NCBI GenBank assembly: GCA_951406725.2
Contig: OX597814.1
Coordinates: 218,240,001-218,304,000 of the forward strand
Length of the DNA: 64,000 bases
Reading direction: 5' to 3'
Source: Octopus vulgaris
Lineage: Eukaryota
Both the position numbers and the translations under genes were made by a program. A model generated the notes under the pieces. It saw nothing but the letters and a program-made list of their open reading frames with translations. It searched no databases and was not told the DNA's origin. Below are positions 10,344 to 46,193 of the stretch, piece by piece (the first letter of the stretch is position 1; the number at the start of each line of letters is the position of its first letter).

Positions 10344-12370
10344 TGAGATGAAAAAGAGCCTTGACCTAGTTACAACATTCTCAAAGGATGTAGGGTTCGA
10401 ATTTGGTCAGGAAAAATGTTATTATATGGTTGTGTAAAAGGGGAAAACTATAAACCAGACTAGTAACATCTCCATCAATGATTTGACTGTTTCCCCTGCA
10501 TCTGACAAGGAATGTTACTGGTATCTAGGGGTGGATGAAAGCATATCTTACAATGGCACTCATAACAAAACACGTGTTACTAAAGAATTTTACTGCCGAA
10601 TAAAGAAAATTTGGACCTCAGAACTTTCTGCTTGCTATAAAAGTGGCCCTCAATGTATTTGCAGTACCAGTGCTCATACCAACATTTGGGCTGCTTGATT
10701 GGATGCTTGATGAGATCCGAGCCACTGATGTGAAAACCCGAAAAATACTAACAAGCACACATAATTTCCGCATGAACAGTTATGTAGACCGCCTCTACCT
10801 AAAACGAAAACAAGGTGGCAGAGGCTTAACATCGATCCAACATGCCTTTGAATGTCGTATCACATCTCTTCGGCAACATCTTTTAATCACCAAGCATAGA
10901 AATCCACCCCTTGACCAAGTTTGCATGCATAAGGCTGATAACACCATAATACTTAGAAGGCAGCTCCTTGAGCAACATCCTTTGTCTGATAACATAGAAT
11001 ACATGCCCAAAGAAGTCGCACAACTCTACCGCAACGTATCATCAGATGAAAGGATGACCCTATATGAGCAGAAGACTATGCATGGGTCTGTTAGTAGAAA
11101 GCTCCGAAATGATAGTAACATTGATCATGAAAGCAGTCTATCATGGACCAATAACCTGATTAGTACCTCCCACTTTAAAGGGTATGCGTTTTCAATCCAG
11201 GAATAGGAAATATCAACCAAATAGCTGATGCACAAAAGGGATAGAGATGCAGGAAAAGCAGTAAAATGTGACAACCGATGCAGACTTTGTGGAGTTAACA
11301 CCGAAGATATCACCCACATCATTAGCAGTTGTCCGAAAATGTCATCACGGTATTATCTACCGATGAGACATGACATTGTAGCTCGGACACTCTTTAATGA
11401 AATCCGTTAGGAGAATAACCCGAGGACAAAAAAATAAAAACCCACAGTATGGTGGAAGCTATAGCCACTCATAATAAAAAGGAATATTTGTGGAATGTCC
11501 CAGTGAAGACCCCAATAAAATGTAAGCACAACAGACCTGATATAATGATTTGAAATAGAGAAGAGAAACTGTACATTTGTGGAAATTACCTGCCCAGCTT
11601 ATGTTAATAATATAAAGCTGAAGATCAGTGAAAAAGAGATTACTTACACTGAACTGTTGAGAAATCTGCAGTTACTCTATCCAGATTACAAGTTCAAGTT
11701 TAGACCTGTAATTATTAGGGCCCTGGTATATGTGACACGCTGCCTAAATACCAATCTTGAGAAATTAGACTTCTCAAAACCAGAAAGGAGAAAACTAATT
11801 CGAAACCTACAGAACCAATCCGTCACTGCAACTGTAAAGAGCTGTAAAACTTTCCAGAAGTTTAGCATTTAAATATTTATGAGCATGTCTAGATATGCAA
11901 CTATATGCATGAAAATATATACATATTTAGGCAGCGTGTCACATGCTCATAAATATTTAAATGCTAAACTTCTGGAAAGTTTTACAGCTCTTTACAGTTG
12001 CAGTGACGGATTGGTTCTGTAGGTTTCGAATTAGTTTTCTCCTTTCTGATTTTGAGAAGTCTAATTTCTCAAGATTGGTATTTAGGCAGCGTGTCACATA
12101 TACCAGGGCCCTAATAATTACAGGTCTAAACTTGAACTTGTAATCTGGATAGAGTAACTGCAGATTTCTCAACAGTTCAGTGTAAGTACAAATCTGCGCA
12201 TATAGATACATACATACATACACACATACATATACATACATACAAAAATACCCTACTGTTGATGCTGAAATTCCAATGAAGGAGCCTTGGATCTAGGTTA
12301 GAAACCGGTCTTTCTCTATTCGCAAAAAATCTTGAAATAAAACTGAACAATGACGTACATCTACACATAC
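10344..12370 (+). mobile_element. 5'-truncated R4/Dong-type (restriction-like endonuclease) non-LTR retrotransposon in (TACA)n
   Basis: RT C-terminus VDRLYLKRKQGGRGL, CCHC knuckle CRLC...HIISSCP, RHD, NRPDIMI and EITCP motifs; several stops; TACA repeats on both sides. Confidence 0.85.
11941..12188 (-). repeat. Inverted duplication of 11641-11888 inside the R4-type element
   Basis: ORF 11957-12241(-) repeats YTELLRNLQLLYPDY...FQKFSI from ORF 11579-11872(+) almost exactly. Confidence 0.92.
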
Positions 12371-12602: not shown

Positions 12603-13075
12603 ATATATATACCAAATGTGAGGATAAAATTCTTTTCGAAAAAAAATATTTTCTCGAAAAGAATTTTATCAATGGCCAGCATATTAAAAAATACCTTTAA
12701 CGGTTAAATTTATAAACAATTCATAAATGAGGGCAAAGGAAAAAATTTCTAATGCCAAATATGCCGAAAAATTGGACATATTGTCCATTAGCCATATAAT
12801 TTTTTCACAGTACGCACGCTACTCGAAAAAAGGCTGACAGAAATTTCTAAAAAATTCCATTATTACCATATCGGACCGATTTCAGAGTTAGCTACTAATG
12901 GTTAATGGACATTTTTCGGCATATTTGGCATTAGAAATTTTTTCCTTTGCCCTCATTTATGAATTATATATATATATATATAAAATATTATTAGAGACAA
13001 AACCACTATTTTGCAAAACAAACAAGGAAAGACTTAATCAATACATAAAATTTTAATAAATAGTCAAAAAAACCG

Positions 13076-13118
13076 CCACTACAATCGTTTCTTGTCTTGA
13101 TCGACAATCTTCAGGTGG
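13076..13118 (-). ncRNA. Minimal type I hammerhead ribozyme (inverted pseudo-LTR copy)
   Basis: Reverse complement of 19070-19112. Confidence 0.85.
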
Positions 13119-13631
13119 ACTTCCAATCTAAAAAATCAAAATTTTAAAATATAAAAATAATAATTTTAAATAATTAAAGTATAAATGAAAAAATATAAGT
13201 ATATAATCCATATATAACCTATATATAATCCATATCGAAAATATAGACAAATTACCACGAATTCCCTAAAAAAAACCATGATAAAACAAAACTCTTAAAA
13301 ACATATAACGATAAAATCTCCCTTTGCTAAACTCTAAAACAAACCTATATAGTAATCCCCCTAACCTAAACATTCACACACAAATACACACACAGTGGCG
13401 GTTTTTTTGACTATTTATTAAAATTTTATGTATTGATTAAGTCTTTCCTTGTTTGTTTTGCAAAATAGTGGTTTTGTCTCTAATAATATTTTATAACATT
13501 TTACTATAAAATTGGATTTAATCCTAAATCTGATTTTTTCCCTGTAAATTTGGATTTATTCCCTAATATTTATTATTTATATAATATTGATAATTTTGTA
13601 TATTGAGTGTAATACCTCAATTTCGTAAATT

Positions 13632-16147
13632 ATGGATTTTACAGGTAAGATAGAACCGCTGTTTTGGGATTCATCTTTGAAAGATATTCCTATTCCTTCT
13701 AGAAAGGAATTTATCTTGAAACTTGTTAATAATGTTAAAGATTTTATTTCTAGAATTAAATGGAAAGCTTTTTACTATAATTTTTATTTATTTAATGATA
13801 TTGATAGTAGGAATGATAATTTTACCTCTAAATTTAAATCTAGAAAGGAACCTCCATTTAATAAAGAATTACAATTACTTGAAGATAGTATATGGAAGGT
13901 GGTAAAAAATATTGAATTCCATAAATACCCAAATAGAAATAATGAATATTTAAGGAATTTAGCAATTAAAATTAAAGATATGAGAAATATGGATGGTATT
14001 ATAGTACAATCTGATAAAACAAGGAACTTATATAAATTAGATGTTAATTTATATGATAAACTATTAGGGAAAGAAATAATTAAAAAATATAAAATTGTTC
14101 CAGATGAAATTCTTTATAATATTAATAAGGCCTCTAAAGTAGTAATGTTAAAATATGAGTTGGATAATAAAACTGAACCTTATGTACCTCTGCACCCCAG
14201 AATTACTCTTAAAGACCATAAAGATAATTTTTATTCAGACCCTAAAGTTAGATTAATTTGCCCATGTAAATCGGACCTAGGTAAATTAAGTAAATTTATT
14301 TTAGATAAATATATTGATAAGTTAAATAAACTTAATTATTTAAAATTATGGTTTAGTAATAATAATACATTGAAATGGTTTAATAATATTAAAGATAAAA
14401 ATCGTTATAAATTTATTCAAATAGATATAGATAATTATTATTCTTCTATTAATGAAATTGTGTTTAATAAAGCGCTTATTTTCGCAATGAATAAAATGGG
14501 CATGTCACGGGAAGAAGTTAATGTAATTAAAATGGCTAGGAAATCGCTAATTAAATATAAAAATAAATTATGGGCTAGGAATGATACTAGAGATTGTTTT
14601 GATATACCTATGGGAGCACCAGATTCTGCACAGGCTACTGATTTAGTAGGTATTTTTCTTTTATCTGAACTCCAATTAGAAAATCTTAAGATAGAGGGTG
14701 GTTTATATAGAGACGATCTTCTACTAATTACAAAGAATTGTACTAATAGGAATCTAGAAGTATATAAGAAAAAACTATATAGTTTCTTTAAAAGATATGG
14801 TTTACGTATTACTATTTATAAGGAGAATTATAATGTTAATTATTTAGATGTTAATTTTAATCTTATTACAGGTAAAACACAACCATATCATAAACTTAAT
14901 GAGAACCTTAGATATATAAATGTTAATAGTAATCACCCATTTTCTATTAAAAAATCGTTGATTAATAATATAAGTAAACGTATTTCATTACTCTCTTATG
15001 ATATAGAGATTTTTAATAAACATGCTAATTATTATAATGAGCCCTTAGAGGGGCAGGTTATAATAGGAATATTAAATTTTATAATATTAGCGATAAAGAT
15101 TTAATTGTTAATTTTCGAGATACTTCTAATAATAATTTTAATTTTGTTAGGTTTAGTGGTAAAAATAATAGATATTATAAAAAAAATAATAAAAATGATA
15201 AAAATATAAATAAGAATAATAATAATAATAATAAATATAATAATAATAATATAAATAAGAATAATATAAATAAAAATAAATTTAATAATTATTATAATAA
15301 TTATATTGATAAATTTAATAATATTAATAATTCCTTAAATGCTGTACATAGATATAATTCTGATAATAATTTTAATAAAATAAAGAATTATAAATATATT
15401 TATAATAATGATAATAATAATAAGGTTAATAAGAATAAAATTTGGTTAATAGTTCCTTATGGAGATCAAGTAAAAACGAATATTATTAAAGAGATTTTAG
15501 ATGTTATAGAACTATTTATTAGAGATAATCGTAAATATAGAAACATTTTCTCTTTTAATAATTTTGGAGTTGGTTACTCTACCACTAATAATGTTGGTAA
15601 CATTATTTCTTCATTTAATAAATATAAACTGAATAATTTTTATAAAAAGAAATTATTTGATAATAATATTAATAATGATAAGACTTATATTAATTGTACA
15701 TGTAGAGATAAATCTAATTGTATATTAAATAATAATTGTGATATTAACGATGTAGTGTATAAATGTATAGTTACATTACATGATAATAACTTTAAGAATA
15801 ATAATTACACAAAAGCGGTTTATATAGGTTCTACTTCCTCAAAAATAAAACTAAGAATCGCACAACATATGAATTCTTTTAAAAATAAAAACTTAATCAA
15901 CTCAACCGGACTTAGTAAGTACATTTGGAGTCTTAAATCACTAAATATTAATTATAGTTTAATATGGGAAATAATTTGTAAAACTAAATCATATAATATA
16001 GGAGCTAATTGTTGTTATTTATGCTCTAATGAGTTTAAAGAAATTTTATTTTATAAGTATGATAATTTACTTAATACTGGTGAAGAGCGCAAAATAAAAT
16101 GCAGACACAAGTTACTTTACCTATATAATAAGTTTCATGATAAATAG
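13632..16147 (+). CDS. Penelope-like RT-GIY-YIG polyprotein (~838 aa) with one frameshift near 15042
   Basis: SLKDIPIPS, SDKTRNLY, IDIDNYYSSI, IPMGAPDSA and GLYRDD (RT). From 15044 another frame reads LRGAGYN, an Asn-rich linker, IWLIVPY...VKTNI, CTCRDKSNC...C, VYKC...YIGST...R...H (GIY-YIG), CYLCSNE and CRH, open to 16147. Confidence 0.9.
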
Positions 16148-17366
16148 CAATAATAGTTCCCTTTTAGGTTACTTTAGTTTAGTTTAAATTAGTTTAGATA
16201 ATATATTTTTGGTTATGTTGTCTAGGCTTTAATTATAGTTAGTCTTTATTGATATTTCTTTGTTTTAATTAGTTCATTTTTAATGTATATTAATTTAACA
16301 GTTTATGGTACGTTAAAACTTTAATAATTTATATTAGATTTTTTTATTTTTTTATTTTTATTTTTATTTTATTTTATTATGTATTTTTATTTTGCATTTG
16401 TTATATGTATTGGAGGATATATTTATATGTTTTTGGGTGTTATTTAGTGGTGTTTTTATTGAGTTTTGTATGTATGTGTGAATGTTTAAGATCCCTTTGT
16501 TTTTTGTTTTTTATTTGGTATGTTGAATTGACAGATTTTATTTGGGTATTGTCTTTTATAATAAAGTACACACACCCATAACAAATATAAGTGCCCACTT
16601 CATTCGTTGTACTTGGGATTGCATGTGAGCCTCAGCATATGCACCTAACGGCCACTCCCGCCCCACATGGATAAATAAACACATACATCCCCAAAAATGG
16701 GAGTAATCCCATTCACACCAATTATATGTATACAATTATACACACTAGAATAATACATAACTAACCCAAATATACAGAACATACTAATAATCACCAACTA
16801 ACCACCATCACAAATGAAACCCACACCCATACAATGACAAAACTCCCCCCCCATACCCTATTTACACCCACATAGTAATCCCAATATATTCATCCATACA
16901 TGGACGCAAGTGCGTGAAGCACATGCACATAATTAGTACGTACAACCCCTAATACACACTAATATATACGTATCAAGCTCGACCTCCACAGCGATACGTT
17001 TACACCCACTCACACCCAGATGGGTGAATTGCACAACCAGTGAATGCTCACACACACGGGCGCGATTACATTGTTGCATATATCGAGCCAAAATAGTATG
17101 CATATGTACATGTGAGGGGTACACGCAAATGAAGTGAGCGTGTACCCCCTGCATTTATACCCGTGCGTGAATATACACATGGAGACTACCACACAGGTAC
17201 AAATTGTTTAGAAATGGGAGCCCCATCACTACACTTAATGTATACTCTCACCCATCCGCACGGATGTGTAAGTGTATCTCCGGTGTATATGTTGAGGCTT
17301 ATATGTAGCGTTGTGGAAGGGAACGTCGTTTAAATTGTGAATGAATGGGTGGAGTTGGGAATTGTA

Positions 17367-18950
17367 ACCGGGTGGTGGACTAGCGTTGCTTGGAATTGTG
17401 AATGGATTAGTGTGGTAGTGAGGTATGCATCGAGAATAGTTATGGGTTACTGTAAGTTGTTTGTTAGAGCTGCTAGGGTGAGCTAAAGCTCATAAATGTA
17501 TATAATGATTTTCATGGTAGTTTTTAAAGAATCCATTCATAATAAATTTTTTTAAGTAGCGTTGGTTTGCTACGTGGATATAGTTTTTAGTTCCATTTAT
17601 TATATTTCTCCATTCATATTTTGAATGACGTTTACTTTCTATGGCGCGTATTCTTTTTTTACATAAGTTATTTCTATGGTAACGTAATTTTTGTTTGGTT
17701 TTTTAACGGCTAAGAATTTAATTTCACTTCATAATTTGTAACTGAATTGTAAGTATGTATTTGATTTATCCTTATGTCATATTGTTATTTTTGATATTCT
17801 GGTTAATTACGATGTATTTAATGTTGTTTTCATAGGAGTGTTTATGTATATGAGATTGGTTGTGAGTTTTTAGTTGTATAATTAATTTATTTATCTGTAT
17901 GAGTGTGGGTGTGTAAATATTGTTGTATATATCGAGTTTAGTGAGTATGTATATGCGTATATGTGAGGGAGTATATGTATCTGTTGTGTGTGTGTGTGTT
18001 TTGCGTGTGTGTGTGTTTGTGTGTGAATGTGTATTTGGGTTTGTTATTTAGGTTTTGGGATGTATGTGTTAATTTGTCTGTGTGGGAGGGAGTGGGTTTT
18101 GGTGTATTTTGAGGTTTATAAGTTAGTATAGGTTTGTGTATAAGTCTTGGGTCTGTGGTTTACGTGTGTGTATTTGTGTGTGAATGTTTAGGTTAGGGGG
18201 ATTGCTATATAAGTTTGTTATAGGGTTTAGCAAAGGGAGATTTTATCGTTATATGCTTTTATGAGTTTTGGTTTATCATGGTTTTTTTTAGGTAATTCGT
18301 GGTAATTTGTCTATTTTCGATGTTGGTTATTTTTTTACATTGTTTCATTCATAATTTTTGAGTGGTGTTCGTTTTGCCACGTGAATAACCGGGTGGTGGA
18401 CTAGCGTTGCTTGGAATTGTGAACGGAATAGTGTAGTAGTGAGGCAGGCATAGAGAATGGGATTGGGTTACTGCAAGTTGTTTGTTAGAGCTGCTAAGGT
18501 GAGTTAAAGCTCATAAATGTATTTAATGATTTTTGTGGGTGTGTAAGTATTGTTTTATATGTCGAGTTTAGTGAGTATGTATATGCGTATATGTGAGGGA
18601 GTATATGTATCTGTTGTGTGTGCGTGTTTTGCGTGTGTGTGTGTGTTTGTGTGTGAATGTGTATATGGGTTTGTTATTTAGGTTTTGGGATGTATGTGTT
18701 AATTTGTCTGTGTGGGGAGGGAGTGGGTTTTGGTGTATATTGAGGTTTATAAGTTAGTATAGGTATGTGTATAAGTCGTGGGTCTGTGGTTTACGTGTGT
18801 GTATTTGTGTGTGAATGTTTAGGTTAGGGGGATTACTATATAGGTTTGTTTTAGAGTTTAGCAAAGGGAGATTTTATCGTTATATGTTTTTAAGAGTTTT
18901 GTTTTATCATGGTTTTTTTTAGGGAATTCGTGGTAATTTGTCTATATTTT
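17367..18950 (+). repeat. Partial tandem duplications in the 3' region of the Penelope-like element
   Basis: ~17367-17510 recurs at ~18388-18530, and ~17905-18320 recurs at ~18536-18950. Confidence 0.85.
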
Positions 18951-19069
18951 CGATATGGATTATATATAGGTTATATATGGATTATATACTTATATTTTTT
19001 CATTTATACTTTAATTATTTAAAATTATTATTTTTATATTTTAAAATTTTGATTTTTTAGATTGGAAGT

Positions 19070-19112
19070 CCACCTGAAGATTGTCGATCAAGACAAGAAA
19101 CGATTGTAGTGG
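19070..19112 (+). ncRNA. Minimal type I hammerhead ribozyme in the 3' pseudo-LTR
   Basis: CCAC-CTGAAGA-TTGTC/gatcaa/GACAA-GAAA-C/gatt/G-TA^GTGG: intact core, helix I CCAC/GTGG, predicted cleavage after 19108. Confidence 0.88.
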
Positions 19113-19288
19113 CGGTTTTTTTGACTATTTATTAAAATTTTATGTATTGATTAAGTCTTTCCTTGTTTGTTTTGCAAAATAGTGGTTTTGTCTCTAATAA
19201 TATTTTATAACATTTTACTATAAAATTGGATTTAATCCTAAATCTGATTTTTTTCCCTGTAAATTTGGATTTATTCCCTAATATTTAT

Positions 19289-19398
<110 letters not shown>

Positions 19399-20943: not shown

Positions 20944-22050
20944 GGGTTGGACAAAATGATGGAAACACCTAGCATCATAGCATCATAATTTTGAAATATC
21001 TAAGAAACCGTCAAAAGCTTGTTTATTTTTATGTTTTTGATTTATTATTAGTGTTGCTTAATATATTTTGCTAAAATTGCTGTTTCTTTTCAGATATCAT
21101 CAGAAAAAGGTAATTTAAATTCATTAAAATGACAGAGCCATTGGACTTCCAAAGAGGTCAAATTGTTGGTGTTCGTATGTCAGACACTAGCGTAACGAAA
21201 ACAGCTGAAATGCTTCGTGTATCAAGAAGTACTGTCTCCAAAGTAAGGTCAGCCTTTGAGAAAGAGGGAAAAACCTCGGCGAAACAAAACTCCGAAAGAA
21301 AACCAAACCTTTCAGATAGAGACCATCGGACTCTTACGCGAATTGTTTGAAAGGATCACAAGTACAGCTTCCAAAATTACTGCTTCCACAAAAACTGTTC
21401 GCCGGGAGCTGCACAAAGCCTGATTTAACGGGGTGGTGGAGGCTGCAATCAGAAAACCACTACTTTCAAATACAAGCGTTGCAAAGCATTTAGAGTGGAG
21501 TAAAAACCTACAGAATTGGTCCCTAGAGCAGTGGAAGAATGTTATTTTTTCCTTTTACGCTATTTCCAATCACCGGCTGAGTATACACGTGGAAACAACC
21601 AAAAAAGGCATTTGTCTCAGATGCCTTCTTCCGACTATTAAACATGGAGGAGGATCTGTGATGATCTCGGGGGCTATATCTTGGAAATCCACCGGCCCAA
21701 TGTTTTCCCTTCATGGTAAGATTAATAGGCAAGACTATTTAAGCATTTTATCTGATCAAATTCATCCTATGGTTGCGGAACTGTTTCCGGAGGGAAACGC
21801 AATCTTTAAGGATGATAATGCACCACTTTACACAGCTAAAGTTGTTACTGAATGGCACGAGGAACATTCTAGTGAAGCTGAACATTTTGTCTGGTCATCA
21901 GAGTCCCCAAATCTCAATATTATTGAACATTTATGGTGCGTTTTAGAAAAAAAAGTAAGGAGTTGATATCCTTCACCATCGTCACTACAAGAACTGGAGA
22001 CTATTTTTGCTGAAGAATGGACAAAAATTCCTTTGGAAACAATTCAAATA
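20941..22050 (+). mobile_element. Tc1-like DNA transposon, degenerate and 3'-truncated
   Basis: TA|CAGGGGTTGGACAAAA left TIR; HTH ORF 21129-21350; catalytic ORF with KHGGGSVM, FKDDNAP and SPNLNIIEHLW. Confidence 0.9.
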
Positions 22051-22215
22051 ATAAACAACAACAACAACATCGAAAAATACCTTAGAAATGAGAACCCAGG
22101 ATGGAAATTTCCCCAAGATACCTGACGAAGGCTGGAGGGTATATCAGCCGAAACGTTGTGTTAACAACAAACAAGATGAGGACAAATATCCATCAAATGT
22201 AAATAATGTAAATAA
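22050..22215 (+). mobile_element. Hammerhead-bearing retrozyme/Penelope-like terminal fragment
   Basis: 22117-22162 gatac-CTGACGA-aggctg/gagggtatat/cagcc-GAAA-CG-TT-gtgtt: intact core with a palindromic AACGTT helix III. Confidence 0.78.
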
Positions 22216-35890: not shown

Positions 35891-36686
35891 TCTTCTCTCT
35901 ATATTATAATTCTGAATTGCGAAAAGTTTGTTTGTTTGTCTGGTTTTGGCATTGAGAACGGGTTAAAGGCCACTAGATCCCGTCGGATTCACTCCAAAAT
36001 TTACAGCGACATGTAAAATGAGGTGAGGATGCGAGTGGGCTAGGTTAGAAATCCCCATCTTAAAAGGTGTCGTTGCTAGGGCCAAAAACGCACTTTGAGA
36101 AGTCTACTCTCATTCTTTTATGTGTCTGTCTTTCTCCATCTCCCACTCTCTTTCCTCCCTTCCTTTCACTTTCTATCTATAACGTCGTTTCACAGCGTCT
36201 ACCTCCCTTCCCTTCACGTTCTCTTTATAACATCGTTTCACAGCGTCCTATATTCCCCCCTCCCCGCCGTCGACAGCGCTTTCACACACACACTCTCTCT
36301 CTACGTCTGTCTGCATTCATAGAGAGAATTATCATCGCCACAACCATCACCACACAATCATGAGAACAAATATTATGAATCAGATATTTATTGGGTTAAT
36401 TTATATATGTGTGTGTGTGTGTTCTATATATAAATATGTATATATAATGTATTTATACAAAGTGTATATATCTGTATTTATGTATATTAAACTTTTTAAA
36501 ACTTTTTGATAGTTATATATATTTTTAAAAAAATTATAAATATAAATTAATAATTTTAATTTTAAATTTAAATAATTTAAATTTTAAAATTTTATACTTT
36601 ATATATTTTGTATATTATATTTTTATTTTTATGTTTTGGTTTATGTTTTTCACTGTTTGATTTGCCTAATAGTGGTTTTATCTCTA

Positions 36687-36744
<58 letters not shown>

Positions 36745-45240: not shown

Positions 45241-46193
45241 GGATCTTTTCACTTTCATCGGCAGATCGAGAAATTATTTTTTTGTAAGTAAACACTTTCA
45301 AACTTCGGACATTGGTAGAATGTGTCATATAAAACATTTTTTACTCTTAGCGTTGTTGAGAAAAGTTTCTATTTACAAAGTTATTTCCTGTTAAAGTTAT
45401 CGTATTTCGGTAATTTCAACCAATCAATGACGTGTATTTATGACATCGTTCGTGCGTTTGTACTGATTTTAGTTTTAGGGCTTTAGGGTTAGGGTTATGG
45501 TTTTAGGTTAGGGTTTTAGGGTTAGGGTTTTAGGGTTAGGGTTTTAGGGTTAGGGTTTTAGGGTTAGGGTTTTAGGGTTAGGGCTAGGGTTTTAGGGTTA
45601 GGGTTAGGGTTTCGGAAAAAGTGAAAAATGAAGAAATTGGAGGAGGGCCAAAAATGTCAAAATTCCGATTTTTGGCAATTTTCCGGAATCTCCGTATCCG
45701 AAAAGGTGAGTTTTGGGCAAATTTTTTTTTTTTTAAAACAATAATTTGCAAGAAAATGGGGTGGAGGTGGGAAGAAGTCTTTCCGAAAATAGCTGAAAAA
45801 CAGGTAAAAAAACCCCCATAAAAAGCAGTAGAAATGCACGAACGATTATGGTGATGTCATGAAGTAAACATGTTTCAGATACACTCCTTTATTCATAGAA
45901 ACGTAACTGAGATGAAATGTGTCATAAATAACAGTGACTAACGAAATATGCACCGCCAGAAGTTGTTGTTGACAAACAACAGCAGTAATTTTATTCAGCT
46001 GAATACACGTCATTGATTGGTTGAAATTACCGAAATACGATAACTTTAACAGGAAATAACTTTGTAAATAGAAACTTTTCTCAACAACGCTAAGAGTAAA
46101 AAATGTTTTATATGACACATCCTACCGATGTCCGAAGTTTGAAAGTGTTTAGTTACAAAAAAATAATTTCTGCCGATGAAAGTGAAAAGATCC
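45241..46193. mobile_element. Long-TIR (~190 bp) GGATC-terminated MITE with an internal telomere-like array
   Basis: TIR GGATCTTTTCACTTTCATCGGCAGA; TTAGGG/TTTTAGGG array at ~45475-45610; no intact TSD seen. Confidence 0.85.

Follow-up and report, generated by a model that had tools for sequence, protein, structure and literature searches.

The window analysed here, a stretch of 64,000 nucleotides from Octopus vulgaris (contig OX597814.1), carries a Penelope-like retroelement set in (TA)n sequence, with the following features, given in window positions:

12967-12978, no strand: left (TA)n target remnant, seen in the sequence
12979-13393, minus strand: inverted, 5'-truncated arm with an intact hammerhead copy, its 3' end (element sense) at +100 from the cut
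core at 13114, cut after 13080, minus strand: hammerhead copy in the inverted arm, from a descriptor scan
13394, plus strand: single junction A, matching A19108, probably untemplated or an (AC)n slip
13395-13577, plus strand: upstream pseudo-LTR, its first base lying directly 3' of the predicted cut
13629-16147, plus strand: Hydra-type ORF split over two frames, encoding a reverse transcriptase and a GIY-YIG-type endonuclease and including a 42% Asn stretch
16148-19060, plus strand: long 3' region with internal duplications, from self-comparison
17749-19060, plus strand: candidate spliceosomal intron, from contig joints with GT..AG ends, ending 9 nt before stem I of the hammerhead
19070-19112, plus strand: type I minimal hammerhead with a predicted cut between A19108 and G19109, from a relaxed descriptor scan
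19109-19292, plus strand: downstream pseudo-LTR plus tail, its 3' end at +183 from the cut
19293-19395, no strand: right (TA)n target, seen in the sequence

The coding region is split between two frames, 13629-15104 and 15041-16147, with a frameshift near 15050-15060, and specifies a reverse transcriptase (MGA and YRDD) followed in one ORF by a C-terminal endonuclease (VYIG). Most of its 37 protein relatives, up to 44% identical, are single ORFs of 690-800 aa, the only named ones being from Octopus bimaculoides and Argonauta hians. Neither Pfam nor a PDB sequence search gave an informative match for the element protein, and a longer-protein search and scans of viral contigs gave nothing useful. 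We took the Hydra-clade motif list from PMC8557442 and placed the element by its motifs. The DKG to DKT change is present (DKT at residue 129), as are the CxCX5C linker (CTCRDKSNC) and the endonuclease motifs CxxC (CYLC) and CxH (CRH), while the N-terminal RWK position reads KWK in the window and RWK in the majority line of a 26-row alignment. The hammerhead in the pseudo-LTR and the insertion into (TA)n are likewise those of the Hydra clade, and direct and inverted pseudo-LTRs with a tail at one end are those of EN+ Penelope-like elements. Judged by its motifs, hammerhead and (TA)n target, the sense copy at 13395-19292 is a full-length EN+ Penelope-like element of the Hydra clade. Between the reverse transcriptase and the endonuclease lies an Asn-rich insert (15130-15460; 42% N over 110 residues), and an Asn-rich stretch of like placement is described for rotifer Penelope elements.

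The 3' region is internally duplicated, 17904-18330 matching 18534-18963 at 94% and 17365-17512 matching 18386-18533 at 91%. It also holds the candidate intron, with donors GTAAGT at 17749 and GTATGT at 17753 and the acceptor TTTTTTAG at 19060. In each of two public runs, X1 and X2, a single contig passes straight from 17748 or 17752 to 19061; the skipped segment has GT..AG ends at consensus splice sites, the short side of the joint is only 22 nt, and we regard this intron (17749/17753-19060) as a lead. If X1 and X2 are DNA runs, the joints would mean that spliced copies were retrotransposed. Removal of the intron raises the predicted probability of the hammerhead fold from 0.001-0.002 to about 0.02 with a short first exon and to 0.004 with a longer one.

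The relaxed descriptor places the hammerhead core at 19074-19080 (CUGAAGA), 19097-19100 (GAAA) and 19106-19108 (GUA), with a stem II of 5 bp (19081-85/19092-96) and a stem I of 4 bp (19070-73/19109-12), and cleavage is predicted after 19108. With stems I and II and a core that fits CUGANGA, GAAA and NUH, the motif is by its sequence a minimal hammerhead of type I, whose self-cleavage is a prediction. Helix III (ACGAUUGU, 19100-19107) is self-complementary and palindromic, and a dimer is predicted: the 8-bp self-duplex is put at -5.8 kcal/mol, and the two-molecule MFE fold is a double hammerhead of -23.4 kcal/mol, against -7.5 per monomer. The monomer, with a predicted fold probability of about 0.001, is no better folded than shuffled sequences (z -0.16 to 0.15), and Rfam returned no hammerhead row among 90 matches up to E 1. 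The 10.1-11.1 pair is U19081-A19096, in contrast to the G-C pair that is highly conserved outside the core.

Several other repeats lie in the window. A second minimal hammerhead motif, at 22122-22157 on the plus strand, comes with the stub of a different Penelope-like family, of which the window holds no other copy; it is directly preceded by an ORF remnant (21424-21966) that we take to be Tc1/mariner-like. An old remnant at 36627-36695, about 80% like pseudo-LTR positions 19138-19209, ends in (TA)n, has the same 3' end as the inverted arm, and has no alignable hammerhead. Perfect inverted arms of 248 nt, 52 nt apart (11641-11888 and 11941-12188), carry a coding fragment, presumably of a non-LTR restriction-like endonuclease, and are adjoined by a reverse transcriptase-like remnant at 10604-11206. 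A telomere-like TTAGGG/TTTTAGGG array (45453-45629) sits within inverted arms at 45269-45438 and 46002-46171.

The sense copy of the element starts with G13395, the counterpart of G19109, directly 3' of the predicted cut. From there 13395-13539 and 19109-19253 are identical over 145 nt, and the direct repeat runs on to about 13577/19292 past a 1-nt homopolymer difference, the downstream pseudo-LTR having one extra T. On the left side just one further base agrees (A13394 = A19108). The 415-nt inverted arm, 12979-13393, is a 100% reverse complement of 18795-19209, and apart from the single A13394 between it and the sense copy the junction shows no microhomology. The original prediction, that an inverted copy ends at 13393 and that the sense repeat, read from 13394/13395, starts within 1 nt of the cut, was thus borne out, the start lying 0 or 1 nt from it. 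Microhomology joining was considered for this junction and rejected, because the GT common to both sides would leave no A. The insertion is precisely one 5714-nt unit long with a further 183 nt, and the element-sense 3' ends of the two arms lie at +100 and +183. The outer end of each arm abuts (TA)n, so the arms are most naturally taken for two cDNAs, each with its priming on a different strand of the target; what had been described as joining to an inverted pseudo-LTR copy would better be seen as the second of these cDNAs.

We give next to no weight to an assembly artefact at the junction. The junction does not appear in independent contigs of the four public runs (X1, X2, X5 and X10), and the frameshift in the ORF could be a base error. 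However, short-read contigs break at such repeats, so that their silence says little; moreover, head-to-head arms with a tail are a published structure, and the one-T difference separates the two pseudo-LTRs. By our own estimate, a 2-nt target in a pseudo-LTR region of a few hundred bases makes one junction, picked after the fact, roughly a 1% event. Since this junction was chosen post hoc, cases from outside the window were needed.

Relatives were gathered by protein alignment, 80 of 519 metagenome loci being fetched together with 9 loci in four GTDB assemblies. Hammerheads were located, copies were aligned to family references, and 5' ends were placed relative to the predicted cut. This gave 39 hand-curated boundaries within -130 to +110 of the cut of an intact core, 31 from one GTDB assembly (G001) and 8 from metagenome contigs. 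We dropped rows at contig ends, copies that extend past their reference, reciprocal duplicates and boundaries further out than -130. Also dropped were rows at +7, +28, +69 and +98, where the reference carries another insertion, and those at +50, +58, +65/66 (L225, L247), +72, +93 and +105 to +113, which belong to other repeats sharing upstream sequence. Further exclusions were a tandem duplication (L024, -113), two 24-nt matches (L078 +5, L224 +31), a decayed C642 copy (-8), the palindromic L261 pair, and C214 and C402 matches without a reference from their own family. Two rows that were kept (-67, -63) may reflect subfamily divergence. Later family searches, most of which added no usable boundary and one of which re-found a known one, contributed three boundaries (0, +2, +13); the case in C234 was found after the first tally.

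Four of the 39 boundaries, in four families, fall exactly on the cut (position 0), where a uniform null would give 0.32 (P 0.0003) and smoothed nulls 0.55-0.71 (P 0.002-0.006). The excess is some 6-12 times background, and under the smoothed nulls about 82-86% of cut-site starts lie above it and 15-18% belong to it. When the list stood at 40 rows, every other 2-nt window contained at most two boundaries. All four cases come from G001 (C61 10683, C639 9201, C612 9092 and C234 12226); two of the families are Hydra-type and the rest are other or unplaced Penelope-like elements. The C639 boundary is at 0 against the ribozyme of its own genome and at -1 against another variant. Three of the four are head-to-head junctions, as in the window, and C234 repeats the window geometry of an inverted arm, one A and then the first base after the cut. 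The C234 ribozyme ends in GUC, with C where the window has A19108; because the same A nevertheless stands at its junction, A13394 is probably untemplated.

These numbers bear on the simplest alternative, an ordinary early stop or a repair-trimmed end that happened to fall on the cut. The post-hoc choice of the window junction, the share of cut-site starts that is background, the hand curation and the dependence on a single outside assembly, which may inflate the excess, all leave some room for it. We nevertheless think chance an improbable source of the junction, as four of 39 against 0.3-0.7 expected were found in data gathered after the site had been named, the four families are unrelated, and C234 shows the same one-A spacer.

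G001 (L217-L274) is a GTDB bacterial assembly with dozens of animal-like, Penelope-rich contigs, that is, host contamination, and it gave 55 matches to the Hydra alignment. One of its families (L269, 8755-8860) is a 100-nt stub, present in about 50 copies, with CCGACGA instead of the CUGACGA core; many of the copies form head-to-head pairs that start 3-8 nt before the core. At the locus L086 (7635-7683), four nucleotides (GTAA) are duplicated right at the hammerhead cut in one copy and not in its sister copies, which may be a trace of joining there.

A second alternative leaves the RNA uncut. According to it, the reverse transcriptase opens stem I and stalls at the folded core or at the dimeric helix III, and the cDNA is joined there. 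Stalling predicts the same coordinate as cleavage, a few boundaries do lie close to the cut (-5, +2 and +3), cleavage is dispensable for insertion in vitro (PMC11167929), and minimal hammerheads cut poorly. Three observations speak against it. The identical downstream hammerhead was passed twice in the window, once per arm. None of the 39 boundaries falls at +4 to +7, where the enzyme would meet the 3' edge of stem I and be blocked by a helix. Finally, in a short, abundant G001 family with a mutated core, in which U4 is changed in 24 of 26 copies and the stems are kept, none of 25 boundaries is at the cut and 13 are at -36 to -31. This family was counted apart, from the fetched loci among the 40 of 86 and 40 of 84 candidates that were scored; its lack of cut-site starts fits a need for a working core, the contrast with intact cores being not significant (Fisher P 0.15). 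Taken together, we judge stalling to be an unlikely account of the window junction.

The cut is not where most copies begin. Seven of the 39 boundaries, a larger group than the cut-site starts, lie 6-15 nt upstream of the core and leave the ribozyme intact. They often coincide with a TCAT(T/A) motif resembling the initiator consensus, and this upstream group is probably the transcript start. Many of the other boundaries are downstream stops at T or TA runs. The 5' ends of these relatives are thus non-random with two modes, and the cut site is not the main one. It had been proposed that randomly distributed 5' junctions in other copies would count against the idea. In the relatives there is an excess at the cut but more copies start just upstream of an intact ribozyme, and since the ends are non-random with two modes, that test was too coarse.

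Contigs from the family itself point the same way. Very many short contigs of the four public runs aligned on 17300-19310, showing that the family is very abundant; short-read contigs break at repeats, so that junctions are not shown reliably, and their depth is no copy number. No variant fell in 19026-19122 among 40 of the 48 variant rows. The contigs are 2.5 to 11 times as deep over 19136-19271 as over 18728-19067. The depth implied for 19068-19108 is about equal to or above that for 19123-34 in X1, X2 and X5, and only in X10 is it lower before the cut than after it, by about 2.6 times. No loose end or joint lies at 19108/9 among the 24 of 364 loose ends and the 19 joints shown. As there is no depth step in three of four runs, the cut seems not to be where most family copies start; the evidence is weak, because depth also follows conservation.

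We therefore favour, as moderately probable, a reading in which the window copy arose when the reverse transcriptase ran off the end of a hammerhead-cut RNA, by a minority route; our confidence allows for stalling at the core, for a jump model (below) and for the single outside assembly. A longer-than-unit transcript from a tandem master copy would be cut at its first hammerhead and not at its second, and the element protein would nick both strands of a (TA)n site. The first cDNA would start 183 nt past the second hammerhead and copy 5.9 kb up to the cut 5' end; the second, on the other strand, would start at +100 and stop after 415 nt, and the two cDNA ends would be joined with one untemplated A. 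According to this model, reverse transcription runs until the 5' end of its RNA is reached, which is usually the start of an uncut transcript and sometimes the ribozyme cut. Cleaved RNA would then be the minority template, with most copies made from uncut RNA or by early stops.

The exact length of the insertion, the 5714-nt unit plus 183 nt, may also suggest that the template was a unit RNA running from cut to cut. Synthesis would start internally, run 183 nt to the cut end, jump to the 3' end of a monomer or cross the joint of a ligated circle, and then copy the whole unit; circular intermediates have been proposed (PMC4209133). Such a route would require two seamless jumps, since no base is altered where either arm crosses the hammerhead. 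With a circle, nothing would make the second round of copying end at 0, and in vitro the main substrate is uncut RNA (PMC11167929). We consider it very unlikely, and it still has an active ribozyme.

The original prediction, in which reverse transcription ran to a ribozyme-generated 5' end, gains from the cut-site starts in four other families and is limited by the cut not being the main 5' end and by the absence of a depth step in three of four runs. Judging from the junctions compared, it is more likely right than wrong for the window copy, and cleavage would mark a minority of insertions. One may speculate further, with considerable doubt, that hammerhead cleavage is a real step in the Penelope life cycle across clades, the cut RNA being copied up to its 5'-OH end and giving rise to about one in ten pseudo-LTR boundaries, full-length insertions included, and that here splicing of the intron that ends 9 nt before stem I switches on the upstream hammerhead. 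Such a switch would explain why the first hammerhead was cut and the second, unspliced one was copied intact. Insertions at the cut site would be a fossil record of cleavage in the cell by the hammerheads of animal Penelope-like elements. By the boundary data, cleavage is not the main way of making the 5' end.

Much of this architecture is already known. The C-terminal EN+ elements of the Hydra clade (Craig et al. 2021, PMC8557442) share with the window element DKT, the CxCX5C linker, CxxC and CxH, and also the pseudo-LTR hammerhead, the (TA)n target and the inverted 5'-truncated arm with a tail at one end. The window element differs in its Asn-rich insert, in KWK in place of RWK, in a tail of about 83 nt against the 30-40 bp described, and in a unit of 5.7 kb against the usual <3 kb, because of its 3-kb 3' region. 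The passages of that paper on the Hydra clade do not relate 5' ends to the cut. In the literature searched, whose figures and supplements could hold such a case, we came across no Penelope-like element described as having its genomic 5' ends on the hammerhead cut, and no account of this class of junction.

The metazoan Penelope-like hammerheads of type I described by Cervera and de la Pena (2014, PMC4209133) are minimal, with a short stem I and a palindromic helix III, as in the window, and the Drosophila virilis Penelope has an intron ending just before stem I, like our candidate. The conserved G-C at 10.1-11.1 is U-A in the window; the passages of that paper on these elements state no in vivo evidence of cleavage, whereas the window has a genomic 5' end on the cut. 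Hammerhead-less Penelope-like clades spread well. The lizard element PAc, a Poseidon of Anolis carolinensis (Frangieh et al. 2024, PMC11167929), resembles the window element in its AT-rich target, in the extension of both strands and in two internal start sites that give rise to a tail, comparable to +100 and +183 here; both-strand priming, internal starts and protein-assisted cleavage have been shown for it in vitro. It belongs to another clade, its cut lies inside the ORF, and the passages on it report no RNA-seq reads ending at the cut and a cleavage that is dispensable in vitro. The closest parallel for the junction itself is R2 with its HDV-like ribozyme (Eickbush et al. 2013, PMC3774820), where the genomic 5' junction records the cut, as in the window. 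R2 is a non-LTR element with a ribozyme of another class, and cleavage there makes the standard 5' end, whereas here it would account for about one in ten boundaries.
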